64,000 nucleotides of DNA, taken from the IMG/VR virus record IMGVR_UViG_3300048578_000375; one strand, written 5' to 3'. Numbering within the stretch: position 1 is the stretch's first letter; each line of letters begins with the position of its first letter. Made by a program: the position numbers and the translations under genes. This DNA comes from a virus. The notes beneath the pieces are model-generated. The model did no database searches. It had not been told where the DNA came from and was given only the letters and a program-made list of their open reading frames with translations. Below, piece by piece: positions 1-64,000 of the stretch.

Positions 1-1371
1 GTCGATGATGAGCGGGTGCATGCGACCGATCTCGGCGATGCTCCGCTGCTGCCGGTTGGGCAATTCCCGGCCAACGACAAGGTGCCGCTGATCGTCGGGC
101 TCAACGCATTGTTTGATCAGGGCATCGCCGAGCCGGTGCTCGCGGCGAGTTGGTTCCCGGCCGCCGGCGCGATCTATTACATCGCCGAGGTCTCCTATGA
201 TAGCGGCGCGACTTGGCAGCAGGTCCATGAAGGGCAGGGCAATCAGTTCTCGGCCGTGGTGACGCCCGCCGCCCTGACGCTGCGGGTGCAGGCGGTTACC
301 GCAGCGGTCCGGGGTCCCTATGCCACGGTGAGCGTGAGCGCGCCGACCATCGAGATCGCCTCTGGCACGGTCGTGCTGAAATCCCTGATCGAGGGCATCC
401 GCTACCAAGTCACGACGCTCGAGGATCAGCTCAACGACAAGATCGACGAGGCCAAGGCGCTGTTCGCGTCTGCCATCGCCGAGCAGGACGCGCTCAACTG
501 GCTCAACAAGGCAAAGGTGCGCCACGACCTGTTCGCGGTCGCCGGCGATGCGCAGGCGCGCATCTCCACGCTGGAGACGACGCTCGTCGGCGACGAAATT
601 GCGTTCGCCGAATTCCAGACGGAGGTCAGCGCGACGTTCGGTCCGGCGTTCTCGAGCGTCAGCACCGTGTCCGATGCAGTCGCCACGCTGGAGGGCTACG
701 CCGCGGCCTCCTATGCGGTGACGCTCAACGTCAACGGCTACGCGACCGGCTTCGAGCTGGTCAATGGCGGCAGCGGCGTCTCCAGCTTCACGGTGGTCGC
801 CGACAAATTCCAGATTCAGTTGCCGGGCTACAATGGCGGTGCGCCGGTGCCGGTGTTCACCACGGGCATGATCGACGGTGTGCCGGCGGTCGGCATCAGC
901 GGCAACGTCTTCCTGGACGGCGAATTCCAAGCATCGAAGATCGCTGCGGGGTCGATCACCACGACGCAGCTCGCGGTCGGCGGCGTCGGTCTGGACAATC
1001 TGCTCGACGGTGCCGCCGCCAACGTCGCGGGATCGACCGGCAGCGGTTCGGCGGCCGTCGTGGTCGACGTCAAGAACGGTCGCGCGATCGTTTGGGGATT
1101 TGCCAGCACGGGCGGCTCCGGTGGCACCATGTCTGCCGGTCTCACCGTCGACGGCTCACCGATTTCGGGCGCGGCAGGTGGATCGGCCGCGCCGGTTACC
1201 GGAGTCGGCGGTCCCGTCGACGCGCCATTCTATACCTATGGCACGCCTCCACCGATTGCAGTGATGGGATTCGTGACGGGGTTGAGCAATGGCAACCATA
1301 CGTTTGCGATCTCGGCAACAGCCCCGGCCGCTCCGTCAGTCTCTATCGTCGTACTGAATCCGCGCAGGTGA
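1..1371 (+). CDS. 3' part of the host-specificity/central tail protein (wrap-around copy of the end of 55910-59704)
   Basis: Translation identical to the C-terminal part of the 1264-aa ORF. Confidence 0.9.
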   Translation, partial: VDDERVHATDLGDAPLLPVGQFPANDKVPLIVGLNALFDQGIAEPVLAASWFPAAGAIYYIAEVSYDSGATWQQVHEGQGNQFSAVVTPAALTLRVQAVTAAVRGPYATVSVSAPTIEIASGTVVLKSLIEGIRYQVTTLEDQLNDKIDEAKALFASAIAEQDALNWLNKAKVRHDLFAVAGDAQARISTLETTLVGDEIAFAEFQTEVSATFGPAFSSVSTVSDAVATLEGYAAASYAVTLNVNGYATGFELVNGGSGVSSFTVVADKFQIQLPGYNGGAPVPVFTTGMIDGVPAVGISGNVFLDGEFQASKIAAGSITTTQLAVGGVGLDNLLDGAAANVAGSTGSGSAAVVVDVKNGRAIVWGFASTGGSGGTMSAGLTVDGSPISGAAGGSAAPVTGVGGPVDAPFYTYGTPPPIAVMGFVTGLSNGNHTFAISATAPAAPSVSIVVLNPRR

Positions 1372-1375
1372 CAAC

Positions 1376-3601
1376 ATGACCGCACTCGTCAGCTATTCCA
1401 CCGGCACCGTCAGTGTTGCGGCCGGCGGCACGACCGTCACCGGCACCGGCACGATCTGGTCGCGCGCCAGCGTGCTCCCTGGCGACGTGCTGCAGATCGG
1501 CAATGTCCAGTCGATCATCTGCGATGTCGTGGACGTCGACGAACTGACGATCCCGCCGTGGGGCGGCGGTGAGCAAACGAGCGTCGCCTACAAGATCTGG
1601 CAGGTCTCGCCGCAACGCTTTGCCGGCGAGCAGGCGATGAAGAACGTCAATCTCGTGATGGCTGCGCTCGACACGACCGGATTCTTCTTCTTTGTCGGTG
1701 CTGACGAAGCCGAGCCGAATCCGTCCTATGGTGATGAGGGGCAGTATGGGTTCCAGCCGACCACCGGCAAGATGTGGGCGAAGGTCTCGGGCGCGTGGTC
1801 CTATCTCGGCATCTACAAGGCGTTTCAGTTGAGGGGCGCATACAGCGGTGCCACCACGTATTCCGTCGGCGATGTCGTCACAGAGTCCGGCTCGTCCTAT
1901 GTCTGGATCAATGACACGTCCGGATCGGATCACGCGCCGCCGAACGCGACCTATTGGCAACTGCTCGCGTCGAAAGGCGATACGGGATCCGCTGGACTTG
2001 GTCCGGTTGCGGCATGGACAACCGGACATGACTACGTCGCAGGTCCGCCGGCTGATTATGTCAGCGACGGCGGATCCTCGTATATGTGCCTTGTCGATCA
2101 TACGTCGGGAACATTTGCCGCTGATCTTGCTGCGGGCAAATGGGGACTGGTCGCGCAAAAAGGTGCGGATGGGACGGCCCCGCCGGCATATGGCGGGACG
2201 AGTGCGACGTCCTTTGCGATCGGCACCGGCTCGAAAGCGTTCACCACGCAAGCCGGGCTGGCCTACTCGGACGGCGCGCGCGTCCGCGCCAGCTCGGCCG
2301 GGAGTCCCGGCAACTGGATGGAGGGCGTTGCGACCTACGCCGGCACGACGCTCACCATCGCTGTCGACAGGACGGCGGGCAGCGGCACCTTTGCCGACTG
2401 GAATTTCAACATCGGCGGCGAGCCGGGAGACGATGGCACTTCGTCGCTCTCGGACGTCGATCGCCGGAATAGCCTGCTCGAACGAATCTATCAGGCCAAG
2501 CTGTTCGGAGGCTTCCGCCGGTTCATCAATGCCTTCGCTGATGGCTTCAAGACAAGCACCGGCATCGCGGCCGGCTCTTCGAGCAATTATGCCGTCGACA
2601 CGACCAACGGATTCGTGCAGCCGACATCCGCCTATGCGGCGAACATGACGTCGCTGTTGCACTTCGACGGCAGCAACGGTTCGACGACGATCACTGAATC
2701 CGGTATCGCGCGCACCTGGACAAATCACACCGGCGCGATCAGCACCGCGCAAAGCAAGTTCGGCGGATCGTCCTATAATTGCGGCGCCGGCGCCGGATGG
2801 GTGGACACACCAGACAGTGCCGATTTTACGCTCGGAGGCAGCGACTTCACGGTCGATTTCTGGTTTTACGTTTCCGGCGGATCCGGAGCGCGGCGCTTCG
2901 CTGCAGGCCAGATGTCCAGCAGTGGCACGACCGGCGCATGGTTCACGGAATTGAACGCCTCGAACGTCCTGAGCGCGACGGTCTACAAGGCCAGCGCACA
3001 AACGACGGTGACGGGAACGACCGCGATCACGACGACCGGCTGGCATCATGCCGCCTTTGTCCGAACCGGCAATAATCTGATGCTGTTTCTGGACGGCGTG
3101 CAGGAGGGCAGCACAACGGCGTTCACCGGATCCGTGGATGATTCCGCCGATGTGCTTTCGGTCGGCCGCGGTGGTACATTGGCGTCGCTACAATGGAATG
3201 GCTACATCGACGAGTTCCGGCTGAGCAAGGGCGTTGCCAGGTGGACCGCGGGCTTCACGCCGCCGGCGTCTGCCTATGCGCCGATCGTCGACGCCATGAC
3301 ATTGGTCACGGCCGCGCAGACGGCGGATTCGGCGGTCGGCAATGGCCGGGTCCTGATCGAGTTCGACAATGCGGATGCGCCGACGCTCGACACCGATCTG
3401 ACGGTCGAGGTGACGTGCAACGGCGGCGCCAATTGGGCGGCCGCCGCGCTGTCGTCAGTCTCGACCAATGGCCAGGGTGGCCGGAAGATCGTCGAGACTG
3501 TCGACCAGGTGTGCACGGGCGGCACGTCATTCGCCGCGCGGATCAAGACCTTCAACGGCAAGAATGTCCCGATCCACGGGGTGAGCCTGACGGTTCACTG
3601 A
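1376..3601 (+). CDS. Tail fibre/receptor-binding protein with carbohydrate-binding repeats and a LamG/concanavalin-A-like domain
   Basis: 741 aa, G/T/S-rich; two 'W...TY..GD.V...GSSY.C..DH' modules; LamG-like 'DFTVDFW...WHHAAFVR.GNNLMLFLDG...GYIDEFRLSKG'; last gene of the tail module. Confidence 0.8.
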   Translation: MTALVSYSTGTVSVAAGGTTVTGTGTIWSRASVLPGDVLQIGNVQSIICDVVDVDELTIPPWGGGEQTSVAYKIWQVSPQRFAGEQAMKNVNLVMAALDTTGFFFFVGADEAEPNPSYGDEGQYGFQPTTGKMWAKVSGAWSYLGIYKAFQLRGAYSGATTYSVGDVVTESGSSYVWINDTSGSDHAPPNATYWQLLASKGDTGSAGLGPVAAWTTGHDYVAGPPADYVSDGGSSYMCLVDHTSGTFAADLAAGKWGLVAQKGADGTAPPAYGGTSATSFAIGTGSKAFTTQAGLAYSDGARVRASSAGSPGNWMEGVATYAGTTLTIAVDRTAGSGTFADWNFNIGGEPGDDGTSSLSDVDRRNSLLERIYQAKLFGGFRRFINAFADGFKTSTGIAAGSSSNYAVDTTNGFVQPTSAYAANMTSLLHFDGSNGSTTITESGIARTWTNHTGAISTAQSKFGGSSYNCGAGAGWVDTPDSADFTLGGSDFTVDFWFYVSGGSGARRFAAGQMSSSGTTGAWFTELNASNVLSATVYKASAQTTVTGTTAITTTGWHHAAFVRTGNNLMLFLDGVQEGSTTAFTGSVDDSADVLSVGRGGTLASLQWNGYIDEFRLSKGVARWTAGFTPPASAYAPIVDAMTLVTAAQTADSAVGNGRVLIEFDNADAPTLDTDLTVEVTCNGGANWAAAALSSVSTNGQGGRKIVETVDQVCTGGTSFAARIKTFNGKNVPIHGVSLTVH

Positions 3602-3940
3602 GGGAGCGGGTCGCGGGAGCTCTCGCTCCTGCCTTCCAAATTGTGAGGGAGTGATGGCGGTTACAATTCCGTTCTCGTCGAAGACGAGTCCGACATGTCG
3701 TTCGTCCATTTGGCGTCATCCTATGCATGGCTGGTGCCGGGTGGTTCATAATCAGCAGCATAGGTGCTGACCCCCAGTATTCCCGCCACGCCGGGAATGA
3801 CCCTGCGCTGCTGCTAACGGTTATTCGTGGGGCCACCCGGCCTAAGGACTAGCCGGAAAACCTATGCTGCCTTTGTCGCGCTGCCGGTTATGACGCCACC
3901 AGCGCGGGCGCGACCTTAGCAGCTCAATTCTCGCCGAAAC

Positions 3941-3961
3941 AGCCCCCGGCGGGGCTCTTTT
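3941..3961 (+). terminator. Rho-independent terminator-like hairpin before the lysis cassette
   Basis: AGCCCC-cggc-GGGGCT followed by CTTTT. Confidence 0.55.
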
Positions 3962-3986
3962 CCACCAAGCCAGAACGGAGATCACC

Positions 3987-4634
3987 ATGTCATGGCGCCT
4001 CGCGCGCGGGCTCGAGCAGCTACGCGCCCAAGTCAACGCAAAGTGGCCCAAGCGCAGCAAGGACAGCGATGGGTCGATCGGAGACACCAGCCATTCGGCG
4101 CGTGCATCCGACCACAATCCGGATGGCGCCGGCGTGGTGCATGCGATCGATATCACCCACGATCCGAAGGGCGGTTTCGACAGCTATGCCTTCGCCGACC
4201 TGTTGCTCGAGCGGCAGGATCCTCGGCTCAAATACGTGATCTCGAACCGACGGATCGGATCGGGCCCGGCCGGGCCGTCGCCTGGCGCCTGGCGCAAATA
4301 TACCGGCGTCAACCCGCACGATCATCACGTTCATGTTTCGATCGTCTCGGGCGCGCTCGCCGATGACGCGCGGGACTGGGATATCGGCGAGGTGACTGCC
4401 GCAGCCCCGGTCGCCGCAACGGCCTATGTGGCGCCGCCGGCGACCCTGCGCAGGGGCGATCGCGGTCTGCAGGTCCAGACCCTGCAGGGCCGGCTGAACG
4501 CTCACGGGGCCGTCCTGAAGGTCGATGGCGACTTCGGCCCCGCGACGCTGGCCGCATTGCGGGCCTTCCAGGCGAGCGCCGGGCTCGTGCCTGACGGCAT
4601 CTGCGGCCCGATGTCCTGGCGCGCGCTCGCCTGA
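3987..4634 (+). CDS. Endolysin: N-terminal His-rich Zn-peptidase-like domain plus C-terminal peptidoglycan-binding domain
   Basis: 'SDH...AIDIT' and 'NPHDHHVHVS' motifs; PG_binding_1-like 'LRRGDRG..V..LQ..L...G..L.VDG.FGP.T..A...FQ...GL..DGI.GP'. Confidence 0.85.
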   Translation: MSWRLARGLEQLRAQVNAKWPKRSKDSDGSIGDTSHSARASDHNPDGAGVVHAIDITHDPKGGFDSYAFADLLLERQDPRLKYVISNRRIGSGPAGPSPGAWRKYTGVNPHDHHVHVSIVSGALADDARDWDIGEVTAAAPVAATAYVAPPATLRRGDRGLQVQTLQGRLNAHGAVLKVDGDFGPATLAALRAFQASAGLVPDGICGPMSWRALA

Positions 4635-4684
4635 CGCTATTGCCGCCGCGCGACGGTCCTCGCGCTTTTCAAAGGAGAAAACCA

Positions 4685-5182
4685 ATGAAGTTCATCGCGA
4701 CCGCGCTCGGGACCGTGCTGGGTCTCGGGCTCACCATCCTTGCGATCCCGGCGATCGCGCTCGCGGCGGAAGCTGGCACGACCGTCTCGATTCCTGTCGG
4801 CACGTGGGTGTCCGACTGGATGCCGATCGTGTCGGGCGGACTCGCCGCGCTGGTGGCCTGGGCGCTGCGGCAGCTTCCGTCCAACCTGATCGCGATCCTC
4901 GGCAACGGCCGGGTCGAGCTGCTGATCAACAACGCGATCGGCTACGGGCTCAATGCGGTGGCCGGTGCGGCGAAGGGCAAGACCCTGAGTGCCGATGTCG
5001 GCAACAAGGTGCTCGCCGAGGCGCTGCAATATGCGATCGACAACGCGCCGGGCTGGCTGACGACCTGGGCCGGCGGACCGGAGGGTCTTGCCAAGAAGAT
5101 CTGGGGCCGGCTCAACCTCGCGGAGGACGCTGACGGCAGCATCGTCCAGCTCGTCACGGCGACGGCGCAGGTGAAGTCCTGA
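4685..5182 (+). CDS. Membrane protein of the lysis cassette (holin candidate)
   Basis: Hydrophobic N-terminal and internal segments; lies directly after the endolysin; RBS AAGGAG. Confidence 0.5.
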   Translation: MKFIATALGTVLGLGLTILAIPAIALAAEAGTTVSIPVGTWVSDWMPIVSGGLAALVAWALRQLPSNLIAILGNGRVELLINNAIGYGLNAVAGAAKGKTLSADVGNKVLAEALQYAIDNAPGWLTTWAGGPEGLAKKIWGRLNLAEDADGSIVQLVTATAQVKS

Positions 5183-5442
5183 TGCTGACCAGCGGGGCGG
5201 CCGCAGCGGCATGGCTCGCCGTGCTGCGGCCGATCCTCGAGATGCTGTTCAGCGCCATGGGCCGATCGCTGAACGACTGGCTGGCGGACAAGCGCGCCGA
5301 GCAGACGCAGCGCGACCTCGGGGCAGCACAGGCGGCCAACAAGGCAAACGACCAGATGATGGAGACCATTGATGCGATGGATGGCGTTGCTCGTCCTTCC
5401 GATGATGCTGTTTCTGACAGCCTGCGACGCGGAGACTTCTAG
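5182..5442 (+). CDS. i-spanin (Rz-like) candidate
   Basis: N-terminal hydrophobic anchor plus helical periplasmic part; overlaps the downstream lipoprotein gene. Confidence 0.6.
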   Translation: MLTSGAAAAAWLAVLRPILEMLFSAMGRSLNDWLADKRAEQTQRDLGAAQAANKANDQMMETIDAMDGVARPSDDAVSDSLRRGDF

Positions 5443-5614
5443 CGTCGTCGTCAAGATCGTCTGTCCGACGATCAATCAGTACGATGCCAAGACGCAGGAG
5501 CGGGCGTTGTCCGAATACAACGCTCTTCCGGCCGGCTCGGCCTTGCGGCTCCTCATCGGTGACTACAAGCGACTTCGCGACCAGATCACGGTCTGCCGCG
5601 CGCGCTCCAAATAG
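5369..5614 (+). CDS. o-spanin (Rz1-like) lipoprotein candidate
   Basis: Lipobox LTAC; start is embedded in the upstream gene, the typical overlapped spanin arrangement. Confidence 0.65.
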   Translation: MMRWMALLVLPMMLFLTACDAETSSVVVKIVCPTINQYDAKTQERALSEYNALPAGSALRLLIGDYKRLRDQITVCRARSK

Positions 5615-5641
5615 AGACCTTCGGCGGAAGGATGACGGGGA

Positions 5642-5953
5642 ATGGATGCTGGTAATTGGGCAATTCTAATCGCTGCAGGCGCGCTCATGCTCAACTTCGT
5701 CGACAAGATCTTTGGTGGCGGATGGAAGCTCTCCAACCGCATCACGAAGCTGGAGACCGGCGTCGATGGAATACAGCTCGAGATCAGGAAGCTGGTCGAG
5801 GCCATAGGCAAGATCGCCGACATGCGAGGCGATATCCGTGTTCTCGACACGCGCATGCTTGCGACCGAGCAGGATGTTCGGGAACTGCGGCACGGTGAAG
5901 GGTTCGTCCGAAATCGCAACCTGACCGATCCCGGCGTCAATCGGGAATACTGA
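5642..5953 (+). CDS. Small membrane-anchored coiled-coil protein (possible holin/antiholin)
   Basis: N-terminal hydrophobic helix followed by heptad-like repeats. Confidence 0.45.
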   Translation: MDAGNWAILIAAGALMLNFVDKIFGGGWKLSNRITKLETGVDGIQLEIRKLVEAIGKIADMRGDIRVLDTRMLATEQDVRELRHGEGFVRNRNLTDPGVNREY

Positions 5954-7078: not shown

Positions 7079-7489
7079 GTGTATCGGCCCTATCGCACCA
7101 TCACGGTCGGCGCCCGCACGCAATACGTCGTCAAGGTCGCGCCGGAGGACTACGATTTCCTGATGCAATGGACCTGGACCTATGCCGTGTCCCACAAAGG
7201 CGGCGGACTGGTCTACGCGCGGCGGAGCGTGCGGGACGGGGACCGCAATGTCACGATCCTGATGCATCGCGTGATCATCGTGGAGCGGATGGGCGAGGAG
7301 CGGCCGTCCGCCCGTCACTTCGTCGACCACGAGAACGGCGACAGCCTCGATAACCAGCGCGTCAATGGCCGTGGCCGCCAGCAGCTCCGCTGGCTGACGG
7401 CGCAAGAGAACATGGCCAACCAGCGCGGCGTGATCTGCCGGCCGGTCCAGCAGGAGTTCCGATCGGCGCTGTCGGATATTCCGTTCTAA
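7079..7489 (+). CDS. HNH homing-type endonuclease (HNH_3-like)
   Basis: 'V..EDY..L....W...YARR...MHRVI...VDHENGDSLDN...L...T..EN..N'. Confidence 0.85.
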   Translation: MYRPYRTITVGARTQYVVKVAPEDYDFLMQWTWTYAVSHKGGGLVYARRSVRDGDRNVTILMHRVIIVERMGEERPSARHFVDHENGDSLDNQRVNGRGRQQLRWLTAQENMANQRGVICRPVQQEFRSALSDIPF

Positions 7490-7533
7490 GTAGAGGGGCC
7501 TCGACGCTCCTCTGCCGCCTCCCAAGTCAACTG

Positions 7534-7570
7534 CCCGGCTGCGGATGACCCCCGCGGCCGGGCTTTTTCG
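7534..7570 (+). terminator. Rho-independent terminator ending the late/lysis transcript
   Basis: CCCGGCTGCGG-atgaccc-CCGCGGCCGGG (one G:U pair) followed by CTTTTT; convergent with the leftward operon. Confidence 0.7.
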
Positions 7571-7571
7571 T

Positions 7572-7784
7572 TCAGGTCGTCTCAATGCCAAAATGTCGGC
7601 GCACTGCTCGACTTTCCATCAGGGCTCGAATGAGCACCGCACCGGGACCAGTCACGCCGTTGCGCTCCCATCTGCGCCAGGCGGCGCCGTCGTTGAGACC
7701 GACGAGCACAGCGGCTTCGCTCGCCGACAAGCCTAGATCCGCGCGCGCAGTGCGGACCTCACTAGGGGAGAGATGGTGCGCCAT
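7572..7784 (-). CDS. Small XRE-type HTH regulator
   Basis: 'EVRTARADLGLSASEAAVLVG....AWRRWERNG'. Confidence 0.8.
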   Translation of the reverse strand: MAHHLSPSEVRTARADLGLSASEAAVLVGLNDGAAWRRWERNGVTGPGAVLIRALMESRAVRRHFGIETT

Positions 7785-8457
7785 TCCTCAGCCTCTCGAG
7801 ATCGCCTGGACCGGTCGAATAGCGGCCATCTGAAATTGAAAGCGCCCCCCTGCGAAGGCGTTCGCTGAGCTGCGTCTGCAGCGATTTCTGCGTGAACGGC
7901 ACCGCACGGGCCGTGAGTTCGGCCTCGATCTCGCGGCGCGTCGCGGCGCCTCGCTCCGCGATGATCCGCTCGGCTTCATCGATCGCCGGCGGCGGCAGCG
8001 GCGGCGCATGATCGCGGAGCATCCAGCGGGCGTTGCGAGCGACGATGGGGCCCATCTTACCGTTACGATGACTCATGTATGAGAGGTGGACGGCGAATGA
8101 CTTGCGAGCCATCAGCGGCAGGCCTGCCGCTTCGAGACGATCGTAGAGGTCATCCTTCGCGATTCCCTCACGGCCCGCCTTGGTGATCTCGGCTATGATG
8201 GCGTCATCGACCGCGGCGTTTCGTTTTGCGCGCGGACCCCGCGTTCTTGGCTGCCGTGTTCCCATGTGGGTTTCGTAAGCCGAAAGCGCTGCAATGGCAG
8301 CATCCAGTTTTTCGAGCTCGGAGCGGTCGGCGTCGATGGCGCTGGAAAGATTGTCGGCCATACGGATATACTTCGCACGCCGCCGCTCGATTTCGTCATG
8401 ATGCCGTTTGACCTTGAGGCGGCGCGCCCGCAGGCCCGTGATTGTGAGTTGAGCCAT
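7762..8457 (-). CDS. Hypothetical protein (coiled coil plus probable winged-helix domains)
   Basis: 231-aa ORF with protein-like composition in the leftward operon. Confidence 0.6.
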   Translation of the reverse strand: MAQLTITGLRARRLKVKRHHDEIERRRAKYIRMADNLSSAIDADRSELEKLDAAIAALSAYETHMGTRQPRTRGPRAKRNAAVDDAIIAEITKAGREGIAKDDLYDRLEAAGLPLMARKSFAVHLSYMSHRNGKMGPIVARNARWMLRDHAPPLPPPAIDEAERIIAERGAATRREIEAELTARAVPFTQKSLQTQLSERLRRGALSISDGRYSTGPGDLERLRNGAPSLP

Positions 8458-8479
8458 TCAAGCCACTCGTTTCGTTGCA

Positions 8480-8725
8480 TCAGACCTCAACCAACCACCA
8501 CCCGTCATGCCAGATGGCGCCTGGCTCAGTGGGGCCAGTTATCTTCATCACCTTGGCGCCGGCCAGCGCTCCGCGCCCGCTGAAGCGCTCCAGCGTCTTG
8601 CGCGCGCTTTCGGCGCTCGAAAAGACCGCTTCGGCTGCGGCTTGATGGTGCTTCCAGAGCCGCTTCACGGTCGGGAGCATGATGACGAAGGAGAGACCGG
8701 ATATCTTGGAGCGGTTGGTGGCCAT
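8480..8725 (-). CDS. Hypothetical protein
   Basis: 81 aa, coupled to the upstream ORF. Confidence 0.55.
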   Translation of the reverse strand: MATNRSKISGLSFVIMLPTVKRLWKHHQAAAEAVFSSAESARKTLERFSGRGALAGAKVMKITGPTEPGAIWHDGWWLVEV

Positions 8726-8940
8726 CAGACGATCCCCCGGTTCATGACCTTGATGTCGTCGATGTAGTTGGAGGCGCCGCGCTTGGTCAGCATGGTCTGG
8801 CTGTCGAACAGCTTCGCGGAGAGATTCCGGCGGTCCATCAGGGCGATGATGTAGTCGATCTGCTTCTCGGTGGGCGCCGAAAGGCCCTGGCGGGAAGCTT
8901 CGGCGGCGAGCTCGGCAAGGCGGGACTTGATCTCGGACAT
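8725..8940 (-). CDS. Hypothetical protein
   Basis: ATG at 8940 with RBS GGAG; 'APTEKQIDYI..L' motif. Confidence 0.55.
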   Translation of the reverse strand: MSEIKSRLAELAAEASRQGLSAPTEKQIDYIIALMDRRNLSAKLFDSQTMLTKRGASNYIDDIKVMNRGIV

Positions 8941-9000
8941 CTTCTGTCTCCAGCCCCTGATCCGACCCGAGGCGCGGTCATCAACTCGCTGTTGATGAGC

Positions 9001-9031
9001 CAACATAGGTCTAATGGACCTATGTTGTCAA
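9001..9031 (-). promoter_or_regulatory. Sigma70-type promoter of the leftward operon overlapped by an 11-bp inverted repeat
   Basis: Minus strand TTGACA-N17-CTATGT; CAACATAGGTC-taatg-GACCTATGTTG at 9001-9027. Confidence 0.7.
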
Positions 9032-9221
9032 CTGCGAATTTTGAAATCGGATATTCCGTTCCAACTGCATGAAACGGCCCCGACCGCTTGGAGGTATAGG
9101 GGTTTGATCGGGGCCGCCTTCCAAGTGCCGGCCAGATGGGGAGGTGGCCGGCAGGAAACCAAAGCCCATAGGAACCTTTTGTTCCTCGCTTCGTTAGAGC
9201 GTGCCATCGAAGGAGGTGCCC

Positions 9222-10959: not shown

Positions 10960-12336
10960 CTATTTTGATGTTCGCCGCAGGCTCCAATCGGCCCCCCCAT
11001 TTATCATATTTTCCGAGTGAGTGACGTGGCGCAGGTTATGGCGCTGATTGTTGAGGCCGTTCCGGTCCTTATGGTCAATCTCCATTCCGTCAGGCGCTGG
11101 CATGATCACGCACTGCATGTCGACCGTCTTGCCATTGATGCGGGCGCGAGCGTACATGGTTCGCGATCTCCTGGGCTGTCTGGCGTACCAGCGAAATGCG
11201 TTGATACGCTCAAAGTCCTCCTCGTCGACCAGCGCGATAAGGCCGCCGTGCTTACGACCGACCAGAATGATTTCTCTCGGCGCTTTTCTCGTCGTCCGGT
11301 CTCTGTGCTCCTCCAATTTTGCGATGGCGTTCGCCGCCAGCACGCCGCGGCGCGCGAGATAGGTGTCGATGATGCGCTGCGCCTTGTCGACGGTCCAAGT
11401 CAGCGCCTCGGCGATCTCCGGCGCGGTGGCGCCAGCTTCCGCCAGCAAGGTCGCCGCGGTGCCGCGGTTGTCGTGGAAGTTGAGATCGCCGGCGCCGATG
11501 CGGTCGGCATCCTCGCGCCAATGTTCGTTGAAATAGCGCCTGGTGTAGGCCTTGCCGGTCGGCGTCAGCATCACCAGCGCGCCCTTCTTGCTCTCCGCAA
11601 GCTTGTCGAGATGCGCCTTGAGCTCGCGGGTGGCGGGGATCCAGACGAGCTTCTTGGTCTTGCTCGCGCGGATCTGCACCTTCTCGCCATTGTAGCGGGT
11701 CCAGGTGAACTTGCGGATGTCGCCGGCGCGCATCGCGGTGTTGCGCACCAGGATCATCGCCGTCACCATGGCCGGCCGGGCCGTCCTGATGAATTTCTGC
11801 TGCAGCTCCTCGTCCCACACCTTCTCGGTGCGATTGCTCCTGTAGAGCCGCTCAAACGACGGGACCGGGTGATGCTTGATGCGACGCTTCTCCCTGGCGA
11901 AAGACAGCACCCGGCACAGCGCCGACATCAGGTTGTCGGCCGAGCGGTGCGAGGTCTTGCCGAGCTCCTGGTGCCAGGCGAGCGCGTCGGCGGCGAACGC
12001 GTCGGCATCGTCGGCGCTGTTGAAGGTCTCTTCGGGGACGGTGCCCCATTTCTTTTCGACGCGCTTGAGCTTCCAGACGTACTCGCGGCGGGAGTCATCG
12101 CTCAGTGAGGCGAAGGTCTCGGAGCCGTCGAAAAACCGGATGAGGTCGGTCAGCGTGCGCTCGCCGGCGCGCCGCTTCTTCTTCTCGGCATCGGCATAGC
12201 TCGCCGCGAGCTGGTCGGCATCGAGCGGCAGGCCGGTGGCGCGGTGATAGAGATAGGTTCTGATGGAGCCGTCGGCGAGGACCTTCGACGTGCGCTTGAT
12301 GCCGGTGAGTTTAAGCGGCTTCCGTCTTGGACGCAT
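10960..12336 (-). CDS. int: Tyrosine integrase with a fused C-terminal HNH endonuclease domain
   Basis: Catalytic R (TAMRAGDI), H-x-x-R (FHDNRGT) and Y (IIDTYLA); the last ~105 aa read 'ALVDEEDFERI..FRWY...YARA...IDHKDRNGLNNQRHNL..VTHSEN'. Confidence 0.9.
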   Translation of the reverse strand: MRPRRKPLKLTGIKRTSKVLADGSIRTYLYHRATGLPLDADQLAASYADAEKKKRRAGERTLTDLIRFFDGSETFASLSDDSRREYVWKLKRVEKKWGTVPEETFNSADDADAFAADALAWHQELGKTSHRSADNLMSALCRVLSFAREKRRIKHHPVPSFERLYRSNRTEKVWDEELQQKFIRTARPAMVTAMILVRNTAMRAGDIRKFTWTRYNGEKVQIRASKTKKLVWIPATRELKAHLDKLAESKKGALVMLTPTGKAYTRRYFNEHWREDADRIGAGDLNFHDNRGTAATLLAEAGATAPEIAEALTWTVDKAQRIIDTYLARRGVLAANAIAKLEEHRDRTTRKAPREIILVGRKHGGLIALVDEEDFERINAFRWYARQPRRSRTMYARARINGKTVDMQCVIMPAPDGMEIDHKDRNGLNNQRHNLRHVTHSENMINGGADWSLRRTSK

Positions 12337-16224: not shown

Positions 16225-16538
16225 GATTCTGGCTCCGATGGTGGTTTGGACCCTGCCATCGAAGACGCCGCGCCGGACGAGTCGCAAGGCTCGTCCGGCG
16301 CGAACGATCCATCATCCACAACCCTTATGAGACCGCCTCCGTCTGCTGGCGTTGGTTGAACTTCGCGAGGCCTGACCGTCTCGCATCTGCGTTCCCCGCG
16401 TACCGCGTTGAGTAGCCCACTCACGTTCTGGCCTGTCCGCCGTCGGAAGCATTTCCGACGCGCGAGACCTGCTGTCTCGTTTTTCGAAGTCCGGCCAAGG
16501 GAAATCCCGAACCGCCGGCAACCATGGGAGCATGATAC

Positions 16539-17432
16539 ATGAACGACCTCGCCAAGACGGAAGGTGTGAGCCGCCTTCTGACCAAGCTCGACCCGGCCTC
16601 GCCGGCCTTGCGGCTCGACGGCCCCAAAGACGTCCTCATCAAGGCCGGCACGGTGTTTGCGGGTGTACCGTTCGAGGCGGACACGCCCGTCCGCATGGCG
16701 GAGCTCGTGCCCGGCACCGACTATGTGGTGAAGCTCGAGGATCGCGTGCCGGTTGCGATGAAGGCCGCCGATCTCGGCGACCTCGTTCTCGGCGGCTTTC
16801 ATTTCGCGCCGGGCGGCAACGCGACGGCGCGGACCGGCGGCGACACGGTCGCCGCGATCAACCCCTTCTCGTTGTGGGATCAGGGCTTCCGGCCGGCCTG
16901 CGCCGATCCGTGCGGCATGGTGCTGGTGACGGCGCCGGGTCGGCAGTTCTGGTGCGACATCTACCTCACCGGCGTCGAGCATATGACGATGGGCACCAGC
17001 GCCTTCGATGCCGTGATCGCCGACGGCTATGACCGTCCGATCGATCCTGCGACCGGCAAGCCGTTCAGGCGCTTCGATTATGCCGCGGCCTGCGCCGTGA
17101 TGAAGCGCTACGGCAAGGGGCTCCTCTCGTTCGAGGAGTTCGCGGTCGCCGCCTATGGCGTGACCGAGAAGACGGCCGCGGAGCGCGATCCGCGCACGAC
17201 CGGGCTCGACGCGGCGCGCACCTCGCGCTTCGGCCTGATGCAGGCGACCGGCAACATGTGGGTCTGGGGTCACGATGGCGATCCGGATGAGCCGCGCGCC
17301 TCGCTCCTCGGCGGGTCCTGGCTGAGCGGGGGCCTCGCGGGCTCGCGCTACGCGGACCTCGACGGCTGGGCGGTCAACTCGTACGAGGGCGTCGGCGCCC
17401 GCGGCCGCAGTGATCACCTGCAGCTTGCTTAG
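16539..17432 (+). CDS. mtd: DGR target protein 1, Mtd-like C-type-lectin fold
   Basis: Motifs as recalled for BPP-1 Mtd: GGFH(F/Y)APG.NA, IN..SLWD..FRP, FW.DIYL.GV.H, GARG..DHL; carries VR1 at its 3' end. Confidence 0.9.
   Translation: MNDLAKTEGVSRLLTKLDPASPALRLDGPKDVLIKAGTVFAGVPFEADTPVRMAELVPGTDYVVKLEDRVPVAMKAADLGDLVLGGFHFAPGGNATARTGGDTVAAINPFSLWDQGFRPACADPCGMVLVTAPGRQFWCDIYLTGVEHMTMGTSAFDAVIADGYDRPIDPATGKPFRRFDYAAACAVMKRYGKGLLSFEEFAVAAYGVTEKTAAERDPRTTGLDAARTSRFGLMQATGNMWVWGHDGDPDEPRASLLGGSWLSGGLAGSRYADLDGWAVNSYEGVGARGRSDHLQLA
17291..17415 (+). repeat. DGR variable repeat VR1
   Basis: 125-bp alignment to TR with 14 mismatches, all at TR adenines. Confidence 0.97.
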
Positions 17433-17451
17433 GCGCTGCGACAGCAGCGCC
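17432..17451 (+). promoter_or_regulatory. DGR target-recognition hairpin downstream of VR1
   Basis: GGCGCTGC-GACA-GCAGCGCC (8-bp stem, GRNA loop). Confidence 0.9.
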
Positions 17452-17469
17452 GTTCGGTAGCCGCATCCG

Positions 17470-17970
17470 ATGATCGTGAGGGACGACAATTCAGCGACCG
17501 AAGCTCTGGCGATCGTCGAGAAATACGAGGCCTTCGTGACCTATCTCTATCCGATCCTGCAGACCGCGCCGCGCAAGCATGGCGTCCTCCGCGACACCGT
17601 GCTGGCGGCGCTGTTCTCGCCGATCGGCGGGCTCTACCACGCCGCCAAATCGCGCCAGGTCTCGCGGCTTCACGCCGTCGATGCCGAGTTCGCGACGCTT
17701 CGCTCGTACCTGCGCTTCCTCGCAAGGGGCGACGTCCGGATCCTGACCCCGAAACAGCATGTCGCCGCGCTCGCGCTGCTCGCCGAGCCCGGCCGCATGC
17801 TGGGGGCGTGGCAGCGCAAGCTCGGCACGAGGGGCGATCAACAACGGAATCCGCATGCCGCTGGCATGCGGATGTCGCCCGAGCAGCCCGAGCGAAGCGA
17901 GGGCGCCGCGAACGGCGCAAGCAGGGTTTCGCAAGGCAGCGCCTTGCGAAAGGGAGAGGTGGGGCAATGA
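17470..17970 (+). CDS. avd: DGR accessory variability determinant
   Basis: Basic four-helix-bundle-like protein ending '...EPGRMLGAW'; lies between the target gene and TR. Confidence 0.85.
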   Translation: MIVRDDNSATEALAIVEKYEAFVTYLYPILQTAPRKHGVLRDTVLAALFSPIGGLYHAAKSRQVSRLHAVDAEFATLRSYLRFLARGDVRILTPKQHVAALALLAEPGRMLGAWQRKLGTRGDQQRNPHAAGMRMSPEQPERSEGAANGASRVSQGSALRKGEVGQ

Positions 17971-17974
17971 TGTC

Positions 17975-18099
17975 GCCGCGCGCATCGATCCTCGGCGGGT
18001 CCTGGCTGAACGAGGGCAACGCGGGCTCGCGCTACGCGAACCTCGACAACTGGGCGGACAACTCGAACGAGAACATCGGCGCCCGCGGCCGCAGTGATC
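17975..18099 (+). ncRNA. DGR template repeat (TR)
   Basis: 24 adenines including 7 in-frame AAC codons; matches VR1 and VR2 except at A; followed by a 10-bp hairpin at 18107-18130 and a ~330-nt spacer. Confidence 0.97.
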
Positions 18100-18431
18100 T
18101 CCAGCGCGATCGGCGCGCACGCGCCGATCGTCGCGGGTGCGCTCAGCGCGAAGCGAAGCTTCGTCGCAAAGCGCAAGGCCGCACGTTCGACTGGGGTTAC
18201 GGCTCCGTCGACCGGTCCAGCGCGCTTCGGTCTTCGACCGAAGTCGCGTTGGATATTTTGGGCCAGGGCGATGCCCTGTCCCAAAAATCCGGGGATCAGC
18301 CCATCTATCCTGCCTCGGCAAACACATTGCGCGGTCCGGCAGAGCGGGGCGTAGCGGCCCGGTTTTTGTCCGAAGGACAAAATACCGGCACCGTCGAGAC
18401 CCGCGGCCGGCATTCCTCGGAGGGCCTCGCC

Positions 18432-19433
18432 ATGGCGCGACGCTACCGCAACCTGATCGGCCGGATCACATCGCCCCGCAACATGGACGCCGCGCTCAGG
18501 CTCACGGCGCGCGGCAAGCGGCTGACACCGGGCTACCTCGCCTTCAAGGAGTTCTCCGCGCTGAACCTCGCCGATCTCGCGGCCGACATGGCGAGCGGGC
18601 ATTATGAGTGCGGCGCGCCGCACGAATTCTACATCCTCGATCCAAAGCGGCGGCTGATCTCGGCGCTGCCGTTCCGCGATCGCATCGCGCAGCAGGCGCT
18701 GTGCCTGGTGATCGCGCCGATCTTCGATGCGGCGATGCTGCCGCGCGCCTTTGCCTGCCGGCCCGGCAAGGGGACGCATGCCGGCGTCATCCTGCTGCAG
18801 AGCGACCTGCGCCGCGAAGCTCGCGGAGGCGAGCTGTATTTCCTCAAGACCGATTTCTCGCGCTACTTCGCCTCGATCGAGCGGCCCGTGCTGTGGCGGC
18901 TGATCGAGGCCAAAATCTCCTGCCGCGCCACGCTCGGTCTGATCGAGGCGATGGTGCCGCGCACCGGCATCGGCCTGCCGATCGGCAGCCTGACGTCGCA
19001 GATCTTCGCCAATCTCTATACCGGCGCGACGCTCGACCGGCTGCTGCAGCAGGATCTGGGCGAGCGGCTCTGGTACCGCTACATGGACCACCTCGTCGTG
19101 CTCGGCCGGTCGTCGGCGCATCTCGCGCGCGTCAAGACCGAGATCGAGGCCTATGCCGCGCGCGAGCTCGGCCTGCGCTTCTCGAAATGGCAGATCGCCA
19201 GCACGCGTCGCGGCATCAACTTCCTCGGCTATCGCATCTGGGCCAGCCACAAGCTGCTGCGCCGCGACAGCGTGATCCGCGCCCGGCGCAAGATCGCAGC
19301 GCTGCGCGAGCGTGGCGACGAGCATCGGCTGCAGCAGTTCCTCGCCGCCTGGCTGGGACATGCCGGCTGGGCCGACAGCGCGAACCTCATCAAGAGCCTT
19401 GACCTGCCGCTGCAAAGGGAGAAGCGCGGATGA
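18432..19433 (+). CDS. brt: DGR reverse transcriptase (YMDH variant)
   Basis: 'PKRRLISALPFRDRIAQ', 'KTDFSRYFASI', 'GLPIGSLTSQIFANLY', 'RYMDHLVV', 'GINFLGYRI'; the start at 18432 follows an RBS (GGAGGG). Confidence 0.93.
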   Translation: MARRYRNLIGRITSPRNMDAALRLTARGKRLTPGYLAFKEFSALNLADLAADMASGHYECGAPHEFYILDPKRRLISALPFRDRIAQQALCLVIAPIFDAAMLPRAFACRPGKGTHAGVILLQSDLRREARGGELYFLKTDFSRYFASIERPVLWRLIEAKISCRATLGLIEAMVPRTGIGLPIGSLTSQIFANLYTGATLDRLLQQDLGERLWYRYMDHLVVLGRSSAHLARVKTEIEAYAARELGLRFSKWQIASTRRGINFLGYRIWASHKLLRRDSVIRARRKIAALRERGDEHRLQQFLAAWLGHAGWADSANLIKSLDLPLQREKRG

Positions 19434-19660
19434 ATGATCCGGTCGCATGGATTGATGCCGTCACCGCCGGCCTGGTCTGGCTTCTGATCGGGTCCATCAT
19501 CTGGATGTTGATGTTCTCCGCCGGGATCGTCACGCAATCCCGCCGCGAGGCGTCAAACTTCGCGATCGTGCTGGTCTCGGCAGGCGTGATCATCGCCTGG
19601 CCGCTGGTCGTCCTGGTGTTCATAGGCGGCGTCCTGAGCGCCGCGCGGAGGGTGCGCTGA
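19430..19660 (+). CDS. Two-TM membrane protein
   Basis: Coupled to brt; hydrophobic. Confidence 0.6.
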   Translation: MNDPVAWIDAVTAGLVWLLIGSIIWMLMFSAGIVTQSRREASNFAIVLVSAGVIIAWPLVVLVFIGGVLSAARRVR

Positions 19661-21273
19661 TGGTCGGGCGCATCGAACCGGGTCCGACCCTGATGCCGGG
19701 CGAGCCGCGCTACGAGCGGCTGCGCGAGGCGTTTGCCACCATGAAGCTCGATCCCCTGCAGGACGGCGCACCGATCCATTCGCTCGCGAACCTCCTGCCG
19801 ATGTTGCCGGAGATCCAGCGTCCGGCGTTCCGCCAGTCGCTAGCCGAGCAGGGGCAGAACCATGCCGTCATCTTCCATCGCGGGGTTCTGCTCGACGGCC
19901 GCAACCGCGCCCGCGAGCTGATCGAGCTCGGCCGGCCGATTTCGACCGGGCTGTTTACCGGCACCGATAGTGACGCGCTCGATCTCGTCACCGCGGAGAA
20001 TATCGACCGTCGCCACCTCAACGAGAGCCAGCGCGCCGACTTCGCTGCGCGGGTCGCGGAGTTGAGGATCGGTGCCAACCAGCACACGCGCAAGGCTGCG
20101 CAAAATTGCGCACCCTCGCTGTTTGCCGGAAACCCTCCTGTCGTTGCCGCAGGGGGAACGGACGGAGAGGCGGCCGGGCCGGATGTACGCCCGGATGCCT
20201 CTCCGCCCCAGCCGGAGGCGCCGCCACAGCCGCTGCTGTCTCAGAGCGAGGCGGCGGAAAAGTTCAATGTCAGCCGGCGCCTGGTGCAGATGGCGACCGT
20301 CTATCAGCAGAAAGGCATCCCGGAGCTGTCGGAGAAGGTGCAGGCCGGCGAGCTCGCAGCCTCCGTCGCCGCCGAGATCGCCGCGTTGCCGATCGAGCAG
20401 CAGCGCGAGATCATCGCGCAGGCCGATCCGAAGGCCGTGAAGGAGGTCGCCAAGAAGAACCGCGCCGAGAGGGCAAAGGCCGGCCACCAGCGTCGGATCG
20501 ACAACATGCGCAAGGCCGATGCGACGCCGCTGCTCGACGGCGGCGAAAAGGCCGGTGTGTTCTATGTCGACATCCCCCGCGAGTTCGTCTCCTGGTCGGA
20601 GGAGACCGGCGAGGAAAAGTCGCCGAAGAACCACTATCGGATCGAGAAATTCCAGTTCCTGGCCGACATGCGCGACCAGATCCTGGCGCGCGCCAAGCCG
20701 AATGCCGTGATGTTCATGTGGGCCTGGGCCAATTCGCTGCAGGATCAGCTCGACCTCATGACCGAATGGGGCTTCGCCAGCATCCGCAGGCGCGACGAGG
20801 CTGGGCGGCTCCTGCGCGACGAGCGCGGGGAGGTTCTTCCGCCGGTTGGCGATGGCCGCTACCGCTCGCACCAGGTCTGGGTGAAACGCGCATCCACCGG
20901 CAACCTGCACCGTGGCACCGGCTACTGGTTCATCGACAGCCATGAGCTGCTGCTGGTCGGCGCCCGCGGTGACGTGCCGGCGCCGCTGATGGGCACGCAG
21001 GCGATGAGCGTGATCGAGGCCGTGATCGGCGCGCATTCCGAGAAGCCGAATGAGATCTTCCGCGATCAGCTCGACCATTATTTCCCGGGCGTGCGGAAGC
21101 TCGAGCTGTTCGGCCGGACCGACGACCTCGCCGCCTTCCACAAGCGCTGGCCCGATTGGGAGATCATCGGGAATGACGTCGTCGCGGCGCAGCAAGGCGC
21201 CATCGACAACGCGACTGGTGCGGCGCCTGCGCCGTCGCCAGCGCGCGACACCGACGAGGAGCAGGCGGCATGA
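19660..21273 (+). CDS. ParB-like/HTH N-terminus fused to an MT-A70-family methyltransferase domain
   Basis: 'LLDGRNRARE...EN..RRHLNESQRA'; MT-A70-like 'MFMWA', 'HQVWVK', 'GTGYWF..SHELLLVG.RG', 'HSEKP', 'LELFGR'; DPPW position reads DIPR. Confidence 0.85.
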   Translation: MVGRIEPGPTLMPGEPRYERLREAFATMKLDPLQDGAPIHSLANLLPMLPEIQRPAFRQSLAEQGQNHAVIFHRGVLLDGRNRARELIELGRPISTGLFTGTDSDALDLVTAENIDRRHLNESQRADFAARVAELRIGANQHTRKAAQNCAPSLFAGNPPVVAAGGTDGEAAGPDVRPDASPPQPEAPPQPLLSQSEAAEKFNVSRRLVQMATVYQQKGIPELSEKVQAGELAASVAAEIAALPIEQQREIIAQADPKAVKEVAKKNRAERAKAGHQRRIDNMRKADATPLLDGGEKAGVFYVDIPREFVSWSEETGEEKSPKNHYRIEKFQFLADMRDQILARAKPNAVMFMWAWANSLQDQLDLMTEWGFASIRRRDEAGRLLRDERGEVLPPVGDGRYRSHQVWVKRASTGNLHRGTGYWFIDSHELLLVGARGDVPAPLMGTQAMSVIEAVIGAHSEKPNEIFRDQLDHYFPGVRKLELFGRTDDLAAFHKRWPDWEIIGNDVVAAQQGAIDNATGAAPAPSPARDTDEEQAA

Positions 21274-21845
21274 GCTATCTCACCATGGATCACGCGGCCT
21301 GGGTACAGTGCAATCTTGAAGCTTCCAAGAAGATATTGACGAAAACGGACTTGCGGCGAGCCAAGGAAAAGAGTGAGGGCTGGGCAGCCGCGCCTGGTCA
21401 ACTCAATGAATTTCATAAGCGTGCCTTCACGATCCTCGGCATCGTCGGTGGCGGCATTTACAACGCGCCGATCTCCTGGAAGACCGTGTTCTGGCATCCT
21501 CGGATGATTTCCTGCGCATGGCGTAACGAACTCGGCACGTTTGATTTCAACGCGCTGACTGACTTCGTCTTTCTCTGCCACGCAGCCCGCATCCGAGGTT
21601 CGATCGGGCCTCGCGCCAAGTGCCACATTGAGATCCACCTCAGTGAACGCCGATCCGAAGGCCGGATGTGTGAGAAGCATCCAAGCCTTGAAGAGGCGCT
21701 GACGGCCTGGCATGCGCGATTCCCATCGGACCACACCGTCATCTATCGCAGCGAAACCGATCGGATCGCGGCGAAAGAACTTCCTGCTGCAAACAATCAG
21801 AAAACTGAATCCACCGGCTGCGAGCCGGTCAACATGGGAGCATGA
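21270..21845 (+). CDS. Hypothetical protein
   Basis: 191 aa, coupled, lower GC. Confidence 0.65.
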   Translation: MSYLTMDHAAWVQCNLEASKKILTKTDLRRAKEKSEGWAAAPGQLNEFHKRAFTILGIVGGGIYNAPISWKTVFWHPRMISCAWRNELGTFDFNALTDFVFLCHAARIRGSIGPRAKCHIEIHLSERRSEGRMCEKHPSLEEALTAWHARFPSDHTVIYRSETDRIAAKELPAANNQKTESTGCEPVNMGA

Positions 21846-21848
21846 TAC

Positions 21849-22712
21849 ATGAATCAACTGATCAAGCCGGATCCGACGCTGCCGGCATTGAAAGTCGAGG
21901 GCCTGGCCGATCTTCGGATCAGGGCGGGCATGAGCTTTGCCGGCGTCCGCTTCGATGTCGAGACGGAGGTCGAAATCTCCGGCCTCGAGCCCGGCATGGA
22001 CTACGTCGTCCTGATCCGCGACGGCGCGCCGGTGGCGGTCGAGGCCACGGGCGATGTGGCGGAGGCTCTTGGCGGCTTTCATTTCGCGCCGGGCGGCAAC
22101 GCGGAATCGATCTCCGGCGGTGACGAGGTCCCGGCGATCAACCGGTTTTCGCTATGGGATCAGAACTTCCGCCCCGCCTGCGCCGATCCGCGCGGCATGG
22201 TGCTGGTCACCGGGGCGAAGCATCCATTCTGGTGCGATATCTATCTGACCGGCGTCGATCATCTGATGGTCGGCACCAGCGCCTTCGGTGCCGTGATCGC
22301 CGATGGCGCCAACCCGCCGCTCGATCACGCCACGGGCCAGCCATTCGACGGTTTCAACTACGCGACGGCCTGCGCCGTGATGAAGCACCACGGCAAGGGA
22401 CTGCTGTCCTTCGAGGAGTTCGCGGTTGCCGCCTACGGCGTCACCGAACGATCAGCCGCAAGGAAAGACCCGCGGAAAACGAAGCTCGATGCGCCGCGCA
22501 CCTCGCGCTTCGGCCTGATGCAGGCAACCGGCAACATGTGGACCTGGGGTCACGACGGGCATCCCGATGCGCCGCGCGCCTCGGTCCTCGGCGGGTCCTG
22601 GCTGAGCGAGGGCAACGCGGGCTCGCGCTACGCGAACCTCGGCTACTGGGCGGGCTACTCGCTCGGGGTCATCGGCGCCCGCGGCCGCAGTGACCACCTG
22701 CAACTTGGATAG
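21849..22712 (+). CDS. mtd: DGR target protein 2 (remote), Mtd-like paralogue
   Basis: Full-length paralogue of 16539-17432; carries VR2. Confidence 0.9.
   Translation: MNQLIKPDPTLPALKVEGLADLRIRAGMSFAGVRFDVETEVEISGLEPGMDYVVLIRDGAPVAVEATGDVAEALGGFHFAPGGNAESISGGDEVPAINRFSLWDQNFRPACADPRGMVLVTGAKHPFWCDIYLTGVDHLMVGTSAFGAVIADGANPPLDHATGQPFDGFNYATACAVMKHHGKGLLSFEEFAVAAYGVTERSAARKDPRKTKLDAPRTSRFGLMQATGNMWTWGHDGHPDAPRASVLGGSWLSEGNAGSRYANLGYWAGYSLGVIGARGRSDHLQLG
22571..22693 (+). repeat. DGR variable repeat VR2
   Basis: 12 mismatches to TR, all at TR adenines; pattern differs from VR1. Confidence 0.97.
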
Positions 22713-22731
22713 GCGCTGCGACAGCAGCGCC
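22712..22731 (+). promoter_or_regulatory. DGR target-recognition hairpin downstream of VR2
   Basis: Identical GGCGCTGC-GACA-GCAGCGCC. Confidence 0.9.
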
Positions 22732-52038: not shown

Positions 52039-52229
52039 TCATTCCCTGGCGGGATTGGCTCGGTGCCGCGGTGGTGCGCCTCGGCTGGAAGCCGGGAGAT
52101 TTCTGGTCGGCCACACTGACAGAGTTCTTCGTCGCGCTCGACTTCTGGGCGGAGGTCAATGGCTTGAAGAGGCGCATCGACGCTCCGACGCGCGAGCGGC
52201 TTGAGGAGTTGAAACGGAAATATGGCTGA
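52002..52229 (+). CDS. Tail assembly chaperone frameshift extension (GT)
   Basis: The -1 frame reads 'LGWKPGDFWSATLTEF...RLEELKRKYG*' and ends overlapping the TMP start. Confidence 0.8.
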   Translation, partial: GKRGNRQGSDDIVIPWRDWLGAAVVRLGWKPGDFWSATLTEFFVALDFWAEVNGLKRRIDAPTRERLEELKRKYG

Positions 52230-59704: not shown

Positions 59705-59708
59705 CAAC

Positions 59709-61934: not shown

Positions 61935-62319
61935 GGGAGCGGGTCGCGGGAGCTCTCGCTCCTGCCTTCCAAATTGTGAGGGAGTGATGGCGGTTACAAT
62001 TCCGTTCTCGTCGAAGACGAGTCCGACATGTCGTTCGTCCATTTGGCGTCATCCTATGCATGGCTGGTGCCGGGTGGTTCATAATCAGCAGCATAGGTGC
62101 TGACCCCCAGTATTCCCGCCACGCCGGGAATGACCCTGCGCTGCTGCTAACGGTTATTCGTGGGGCCACCCGGCCTAAGGACTAGCCGGAAAACCTATGC
62201 TGCCTTTGTCGCGCTGCCGGTTATGACGCCACCAGCGCGGGCGCGACCTTAGCAGCTCAATTCTCGCCGAAACAGCCCCCGGCGGGGCTCTTTTCCACCA
62301 AGCCAGAACGGAGATCACC

Positions 62320-62967: not shown

Positions 62968-63017
62968 CGCTATTGCCGCCGCGCGACGGTCCTCGCGCTT
63001 TTCAAAGGAGAAAACCA

Positions 63018-63515: not shown

Positions 63516-63775
63516 TGCTGACCAGCGGGGCGGCCGCAGCGGCATGGCTCGCCGTGCTGCGGCCGATCCTCGAGATGCTGTTCAGCGCCATGGGCCGATC
63601 GCTGAACGACTGGCTGGCGGACAAGCGCGCCGAGCAGACGCAGCGCGACCTCGGGGCAGCACAGGCGGCCAACAAGGCAAACGACCAGATGATGGAGACC
63701 ATTGATGCGATGGATGGCGTTGCTCGTCCTTCCGATGATGCTGTTTCTGACAGCCTGCGACGCGGAGACTTCTAG
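63515..63775 (+). CDS. i-spanin candidate (same gene as 5182-5442)
   Basis: Identical translation. Confidence 0.6.
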   Translation: MLTSGAAAAAWLAVLRPILEMLFSAMGRSLNDWLADKRAEQTQRDLGAAQAANKANDQMMETIDAMDGVARPSDDAVSDSLRRGDF

Positions 63776-63947: not shown

Positions 63948-64000
63948 AGACCTTCGGCGGAAGGATGACGGGGAATGGATGCTGGTAATTGGGCAATTCT

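Follow-up and report, generated by a model that had tools for sequence, protein, structure and literature searches.

One template repeat and two paralogous targets in a BPP-1-family diversity-generating retroelement, most likely frozen recently

Can the single template repeat (TR) of a phage diversity-generating retroelement (DGR) write into two genes, one of them lying beyond the reverse transcriptase (RT) gene and three unrelated genes, and is it writing still? The question is raised by IMG/VR virus record IMGVR_UViG_3300048578_000375, of which a stretch of 64,000 nucleotides (the window throughout) was analysed, the element and its targets occupying positions 16,539 to 22,731. A first-pass annotation, made from the sequence alone, had described the locus as one TR diversifying two targets by adenine-directed mutagenic retrohoming as in Bordetella phage BPP-1. 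As a statement about history this is supported by differences that fall only at adenines and by homology to the BPP-1 family; its present tense finds no such support, as the active site of the RT will show. It is highly probable that this is a BPP-1-family DGR in which one TR has overwritten two paralogous targets separately, and which has most likely been frozen recently with two fixed variants of the variable repeat (VR).

Three copies of one repeat

A repeat search finds a direct repeat of about 130 nt in three copies, at 17290-17421, 17974-18105 and 22570-22701. The genes and repeats concerned are the following.

16539..17432, plus strand: target gene 1, Mtd-like, 297 aa (phrog_11262 tail protein, E 5e-82; Pfam mtd_2nd)
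17291..17413, plus strand: VR1, with 14 substitutions, all at TR adenines, and a G/C-16 run at 17393-17408
17470..17970, plus strand: avd, 166 aa (Pfam bAvd, 2.6e-26; phrog_3206 Avd; 42% identity to BPP-1 Bbp7)
17975..18097, plus strand: TR, with 24 adenines and seven AAC codons in the VR frame, followed by the template's counterpart (IMH*, about 18093-18111) of the initiation of mutagenic homing (IMH) sequence
18432..19433, plus strand: brt, DGR reverse transcriptase, 333 aa (RVT_1; 52% identity to BPP-1 Brt over 324 aa)
21849..22712, plus strand: target gene 2, Mtd-like paralogue, 287 aa (phrog_11262, 1.2e-80)
22571..22693, plus strand: VR2, with 12 substitutions, all at TR adenines, and a G/C-16 run at 22673-22688

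When TR, VR1 and VR2 are compared base by base over 17975-18097, all 26 differences from the template (14 in VR1 and 12 in VR2) stand at TR adenines. The chance that 14 random differences would all land on A, given 24 A in a TR of 125 nt, is P = 1.6e-12, and 23 of the 24 template adenines fall at the first or second position of a codon when read in the VR frame. The first-pass annotation had counted the same 14 and 12 differences over the slightly longer range 17975-18099, with every one at an adenine. This is borne out for VR1; for VR2 the 12 adenine differences stand, but the range also takes in a T>C (TR 18098, VR2 22694), which belongs to the IMH tail, past the G/C run and outside the mutagenised part. 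In that tail a difference between TR and VR is to be expected.

The positions that are not adenines tell the complementary story, and they provide the strongest single fact at this locus. All 99 of the 99 non-adenine positions are identical across TR, VR1 and VR2, whereas the two target genes upstream of their VRs share 73% of their nucleotides overall and 84% in the adjoining 100 nt. Such homogenisation against diverged flanks supports the earlier claim that both targets were independently retrohomed. The two VRs also carry different bases at five shared template adenines (VR1/VR2 at TR positions 17988 C/G, 18048 G/T, 18058 T/G, 18066 T/C and 18073 G/T), so that the difference in substitution pattern already noticed at first reading is real and the VRs must have been written separately.

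Ordinary duplication or gene conversion might be invoked for the likeness of TR, VR1 and VR2, since the targets are paralogous and the 25 nt before their start codons (16514-16538 and 21824-21848) are similar. Neither process, however, can put 26 of 26 differences on template adenines or account for an untranslated third copy between avd and brt, and neither fits non-adenine identity of 99/99 beside 73% in the flanks. The adenine-only pattern has effectively refuted this explanation already, and its probability is negligible. We infer the retrohoming events themselves by analogy with BPP-1, from the repeats that they would have left behind.

Homing signals and the target genes

A target at such a distance raises the matter of what marks it. 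The distance from TR start to VR2 start is 4596 nt, close to the roughly 4.5 kb first estimated, and target 2 lies 2.4 kb beyond brt. The candidate cis signals are these.

17409..17427, plus strand: IMH tail of VR1, AGTGATCACCTGCAGCTTG, which differs from the TR IMH*
22689..22707, plus strand: IMH tail of VR2, AGTGACCACCTGCAACTTG, which differs from the VR1 tail at two positions
17432..17451, plus strand: hairpin 1, an 8-bp GC-rich stem with a GACA loop that fits GRNA (-13.2 kcal/mol folded as DNA, z -2.8)
22712..22731, plus strand: hairpin 2, of the same sequence as hairpin 1
18104..18134, plus strand: hairpin just after the TR IMH*, with a stem of 10-13 bp and the loop GCAC, which does not fit GRNA (-19.2 kcal/mol as DNA)

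The G/C-16 run is common to TR, VR1 and VR2. Beyond it the tails, placed by alignment to TR and to the VR and TR of BPP-1, agree between VR1 and VR2 at 17 of 19 nt and diverge from TR after 18097. The 58-kb genome contains the GC/IMH core at three places and no more, which assigns VR2 to this DGR and not to another, a second RT gene not having been searched for. With 12 of 12 differences at A and three non-DGR genes in between, VR2 fits a non-adjacent second target in the sense of Wu et al. 2018.

An identical 8-bp hairpin with a GRNA loop after both VRs had been seen at first pass and is found as described: GGCGCTGC-GACA-GCAGCGCC, which in each case opens with the G that ends the TAG stop codon. 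As defined by Guo et al. (2011, PMC3240598), the corresponding element lies downstream of VR and has a GC-rich stem of 7-10 bp and a loop of four nucleotides that fits GRNA, and the BPP-1 hairpin, GCGGGGCC-GAAA-GGCCCCGC, takes the same place relative to the stop codon. For a view of the wider family, 64 loci encoding related RTs were fetched and passed through a scripted TR/VR search. Across the family 54 of 74 VRs are followed by a hairpin with a 4-nt loop on a perfect stem of 7 bp or more; the loop fits GRNA in 52 of the 54 hairpins, whose stem sequences differ between loci, and a hairpin of this kind is absent from 52 of 55 related TRs. The pattern supports a role for the hairpin as a functional target mark, with which the BPP-1 experiments agree (Guo et al. 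2011, PMC3240598). As for the structure at 18104-18134, it may belong to the DGR RNA or represent a degenerate signal of the kind seen at targets.

Two objections may be taken together here, that the second target is an assembly artefact and that the hairpins are plain transcription terminators. The window is indeed a wrapped circular contig, its first 5667 nt being the same as its last. Yet 27% of the nucleotides differ between the targets, and an indel of 10 codons also separates them, which no collapsed or duplicated assembly would produce; an independent contig in the databases shows the same sequence across 13.5 kb. The terminator proposal was rejected in turn, as no T-run follows either hairpin and a terminator scan called neither. 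Both objections together retain only the slightest probability.

In BPP-1 experiments the hairpin and the IMH are the cis requirements, and avd, TR and brt work in trans (PMC3240598, PMC5758913). By this precedent an RNA spanning TR and the downstream Phage_DGR spacer motif would be reverse-transcribed by Brt together with Avd. Adenines would be copied unfaithfully, through misincorporation opposite A, and the resulting cDNA would replace the 3' end of any gene that offers TR homology, the G/C-rich IMH and the GRNA-loop hairpin, with the 5' junction set by sequence homology. Because the cDNA would act in trans, distance should not matter wherever a gene carries those signals. At 4.6 kb from the TR, a target would need only cis signals of its own, since avd, TR and brt act in trans in BPP-1, and VR2 has them.

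The targets themselves are Mtd-like. Target 1 has a variable C-terminus of the C-type-lectin type and is 36% identical to BPP-1 Mtd residues 47-380; target 2, whose protein is 67% identical to that of target 1, matches Mtd crystal structures (PDB 1yu4, E 8e-43) over Mtd residues 57-380. A C-type-lectin-fold variable domain is predicted in both from the match to these structures, and both probably serve in receptor binding. Each aligns only from about Mtd residue 47-57 on, the N-terminal part of Mtd being absent, and the targets of relatives are equally short. Both genes stand in a long plus-strand early-region operon after repressor/cro, far from the tail module.

The reverse transcriptase and the present state of the element

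Homology to BPP-1 extends to every part of the cassette. The core order mtd-avd-TR-brt is the same, the TR and VR DNA can be aligned with the TR and VR of BPP-1, and the Brt, Avd and Mtd proteins are 52%, 42% and 36% identical. In both phages the VR forms the 3' end of the target; after it come a G/C run, an IMH tail and an 8-bp hairpin whose 4-nt loop fits GRNA, and a Phage_DGR RNA motif lies between TR and brt. The present element differs in having two targets rather than one, in targets that lack about the first 50 Mtd residues, in a TR-to-brt spacer of 332 nt (about 144 nt in BPP-1), in its location in the early region after cro and not beside tail genes, and in its catalytic box. Two further features belong to this part of the locus.

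18251..18395, plus strand: DGR RNA spacer motif (Rfam RF03022 Phage_DGR, E 3.7e-08, full-length model)
19080..19091, plus strand: catalytic box of brt, TAC ATG GAC CAC, encoding YMDH and not YMDD

The RNA motif, which sits between TR and brt, scores 52.5 bits against a gathering score of 50. The start of brt is put at 18432 because a GGAGGG ribosome-binding site lies upstream and the N-terminus MxxRYRNLI is common to relatives of 332 aa; a database gene call of 488 aa was set aside as over-extended, since it runs back through TR. The spacer (18100-18431) is also longer than in most relatives (about 190 nt), with some 150 additional nt between TR and the Phage_DGR motif.

As to the RT itself, IGSLTSQ aligns with IGSLTSQ of BPP-1 Brt, so that the protein carries the [I/L]GxxxSQ motif 4 of the DGR clade. 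The intact YxDD box is absent: the 119 relatives retrieved all have YMDD (119/119), and YMDH arises from it by one base change, GAC>CAC. Membership of the DGR family by descent is not in doubt from the sequence comparison, but the box lowers any claim that the element is active. In a group II intron RT, replacement of both aspartates (YADD to YAHH) leaves 0.3% of the wild-type level of cDNA synthesis (PMC5037169). For BPP-1, the null allele employed experimentally is YMDD>SMAA. No relevant paper came out of a literature search for YMDH. Five contigs carry precisely these RT, Avd and two target proteins side by side; the protein clusters have one member each, so that none of the four is joined by a variant at 90% identity. 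A search for the exact 34-nt flank pattern of target 1 drew a blank in the metagenome contig and viral contig collections.

The element is thus probably inactive today: the box is YMDH where every relative has YMDD, the comparable YAHH enzyme loses its activity, and no VR variant is on record. It would have frozen recently, because every other part is intact. The word "diversifying" used at first pass is accordingly too strong for a brt that is unique among 119 relatives and for target proteins that recur unchanged on five contigs.

Several points weaken the case for a frozen element and deserve to be set out together. A search of sequencing runs returned none for the 6.6-kb stretch, and shares of at most 0.06 for 17200-18500. 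The five contigs may share one study or population, in which case their identity is weak evidence of stasis. The known box mutants change both aspartates, so the effect of a single D>H in a DGR RT is argued by analogy. Both target ORFs, avd, TR, the DGR RNA and the cis signals are intact, which fits very recent inactivation and continued function alike.

Might the DGR then still be active, with both targets diversifying? This would require that YMDH be tolerated, the His partly coordinating metal, or that the H be a consensus or base-call artefact. In its favour are the intact ORFs, TR, Phage_DGR RNA, IMHs and hairpins, and the fact that a single nucleotide change separates YMDH from YMDD. The conservation of YMDD in 119/119 relatives argues otherwise, as do the absence of VR variants on record and the loss of a related RT to an Asp-to-His change of the box (PMC5037169); the same RT protein on five contigs speaks against a one-off error. 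Continued activity is on balance unlikely. A narrower proposal, that the YMDH enzyme is a natural, still-functional variant, or else that D>H was selected as a lock-in, fixing two useful receptor specificities together, is less likely again. If the YMDH enzyme were functional, a DGR RT would be polymerising with His at the second catalytic position and serving an adjacent as well as a downstream target. A recently frozen element remains the preferred reading.

Relatives, genome setting and significance

How unusual is a second target? The rarity that the first-pass annotation implied finds no support: two targets are present in about 13% of DGRs, and 45 of 372 DGRs have non-adjacent targets (Wu et al. 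2018, PMC5758913). In the phage-associated cases such targets share a prophage with the RT gene and are no more than 50 kb from it (PMC5758913), and DGRs of gut phages with two targets have also been described (PMC10743442). The present element resembles those of both studies in its one TR and two VRs, with the second target a few kb from the RT in the same phage genome. It differs in that target 2 is downstream of brt, beyond three unrelated genes. Its two targets are also paralogues of one fold, 67% identical, unlike the tentaclin/tgt2 pairs, which differ in topology. The 64 related loci are distributed as follows.

38 related loci: one VR from one TR
14 related loci: two VRs from one TR
2 related loci: three VRs from one TR
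10 related loci: no VR under strict criteria

Two or three VRs are therefore found in at least 16 of the 64. The extra targets of relatives are in tandem, directly upstream of target 1 (-1.5, -2.5 kb), with an exception at -6.4 kb in locus L015; no VR downstream of brt was found in the 64 loci. The position of target 2 downstream of brt appears from this comparison to be the only unusual point of the layout. The alphaproteobacterial prophage DGRs whose RTs belong to the same clade (L003-L039, L061, L062, L067, L068) are alike in RT identity (65-87%), in Mtd-like targets of about 290-300 aa, in hairpin loops (GACA, GGAA or GAAA) and in the many loci with two or three VRs per TR; they differ in that extra targets lie upstream of target 1 and none downstream of brt, and all have YMDD. 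In L022, from a Hyphomicrobium metagenome-assembled genome, three tandem targets derive from one TR, and outside the VR the proteins of two of these (7179-8066 and 8146-9033) are the same throughout, pointing either to a duplication of very recent date or to a repeat in the assembly.

The three closest relatives (L003, L067 and L068, RT identity 85-87%) have a single target each. In a tree of target proteins without the VR, the two window targets and those of the three relatives form one clade with 100/99 support, within which targets 1 and 2 are unresolved as sisters. The idea that target 2 is a recent copy of target 1 made within this genome is thus unsupported. The clade with three single-target relatives, together with targets that do not pair as sisters, makes the second target here a separate origin of the two-target state, which the tree suggests is about as old as the split between these phages.

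The genes that separate brt from target 2 are these.

19430..19660, plus strand: 76-aa ORF, with no family match, paired with the ParB/MT-A70 gene in relative L004
19660..21273, plus strand: ParB-like / MT-A70 methyltransferase fusion, 537 aa (Pfam MT-A70; phrog_359, phrog_4715)
21270..21845, plus strand: 191-aa ORF (phrog_22261)

None of them is a DGR component, and the order target1, avd, TR, brt, 76-aa ORF, ParB/MT-A70 gene, 191-aa ORF, target2 agrees, by ORF coordinates and family matches, with that given at first pass (target1-avd-TR-brt, three unrelated genes, target2). In L004 the order is g76, ParB/MT-A70, DUF7220, several other genes, two tandem targets, avd, TR and brt. Synteny with the window is thus permuted: target1-avd-TR-brt here precede g76 and ParB/MT-A70, while target 2 comes after the 191-aa ORF and before DUF7220.

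The window wraps a circular genome of 58,333 bp, positions 1-5667 repeating 58334-64000 with 0 mismatches. Its PHROG matches, which include a portal protein and those below, indicate a temperate siphophage.

10960-12336, minus strand: integrase
40934-42700: large terminase
45132-46451: major head protein
52222-54429: tape measure protein
55910-59704: J-like central tail fibre
1376-3601: further tail protein

At 87,756 bp, the JGI metagenome contig that shares 13.5 kb is about 1.5 times as long as the genome; it may be a concatemer formed in assembly. Against phage genomes, megablast gave no match and blastn only brt of the BPP-1 group, at about 65% identity; a scan of the viral contig collection with the RT revealed no relative. 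Bradyrhizobium, or another of the Nitrobacteraceae, is the probable host, because the nearest RT relatives (85-87% identity) come from Bradyrhizobium genomes.

As multi-target and non-adjacent phage DGRs are already catalogued, nothing here is categorically new. The locus is nevertheless a clean natural case of one TR writing into two diverged paralogues, and the location of target 2 beyond brt and three unrelated genes fits the rule, derived from experiments, that only the cis signals (homology, IMH and GRNA hairpin) define a target. Its further interest is modest and twofold. The first point is that the two-target state arose independently here, with the second target placed atypically downstream. 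The second is that the change in the RT active site may mark a DGR that has only just been frozen, which would make this phage useful for learning how and when DGRs switch off.

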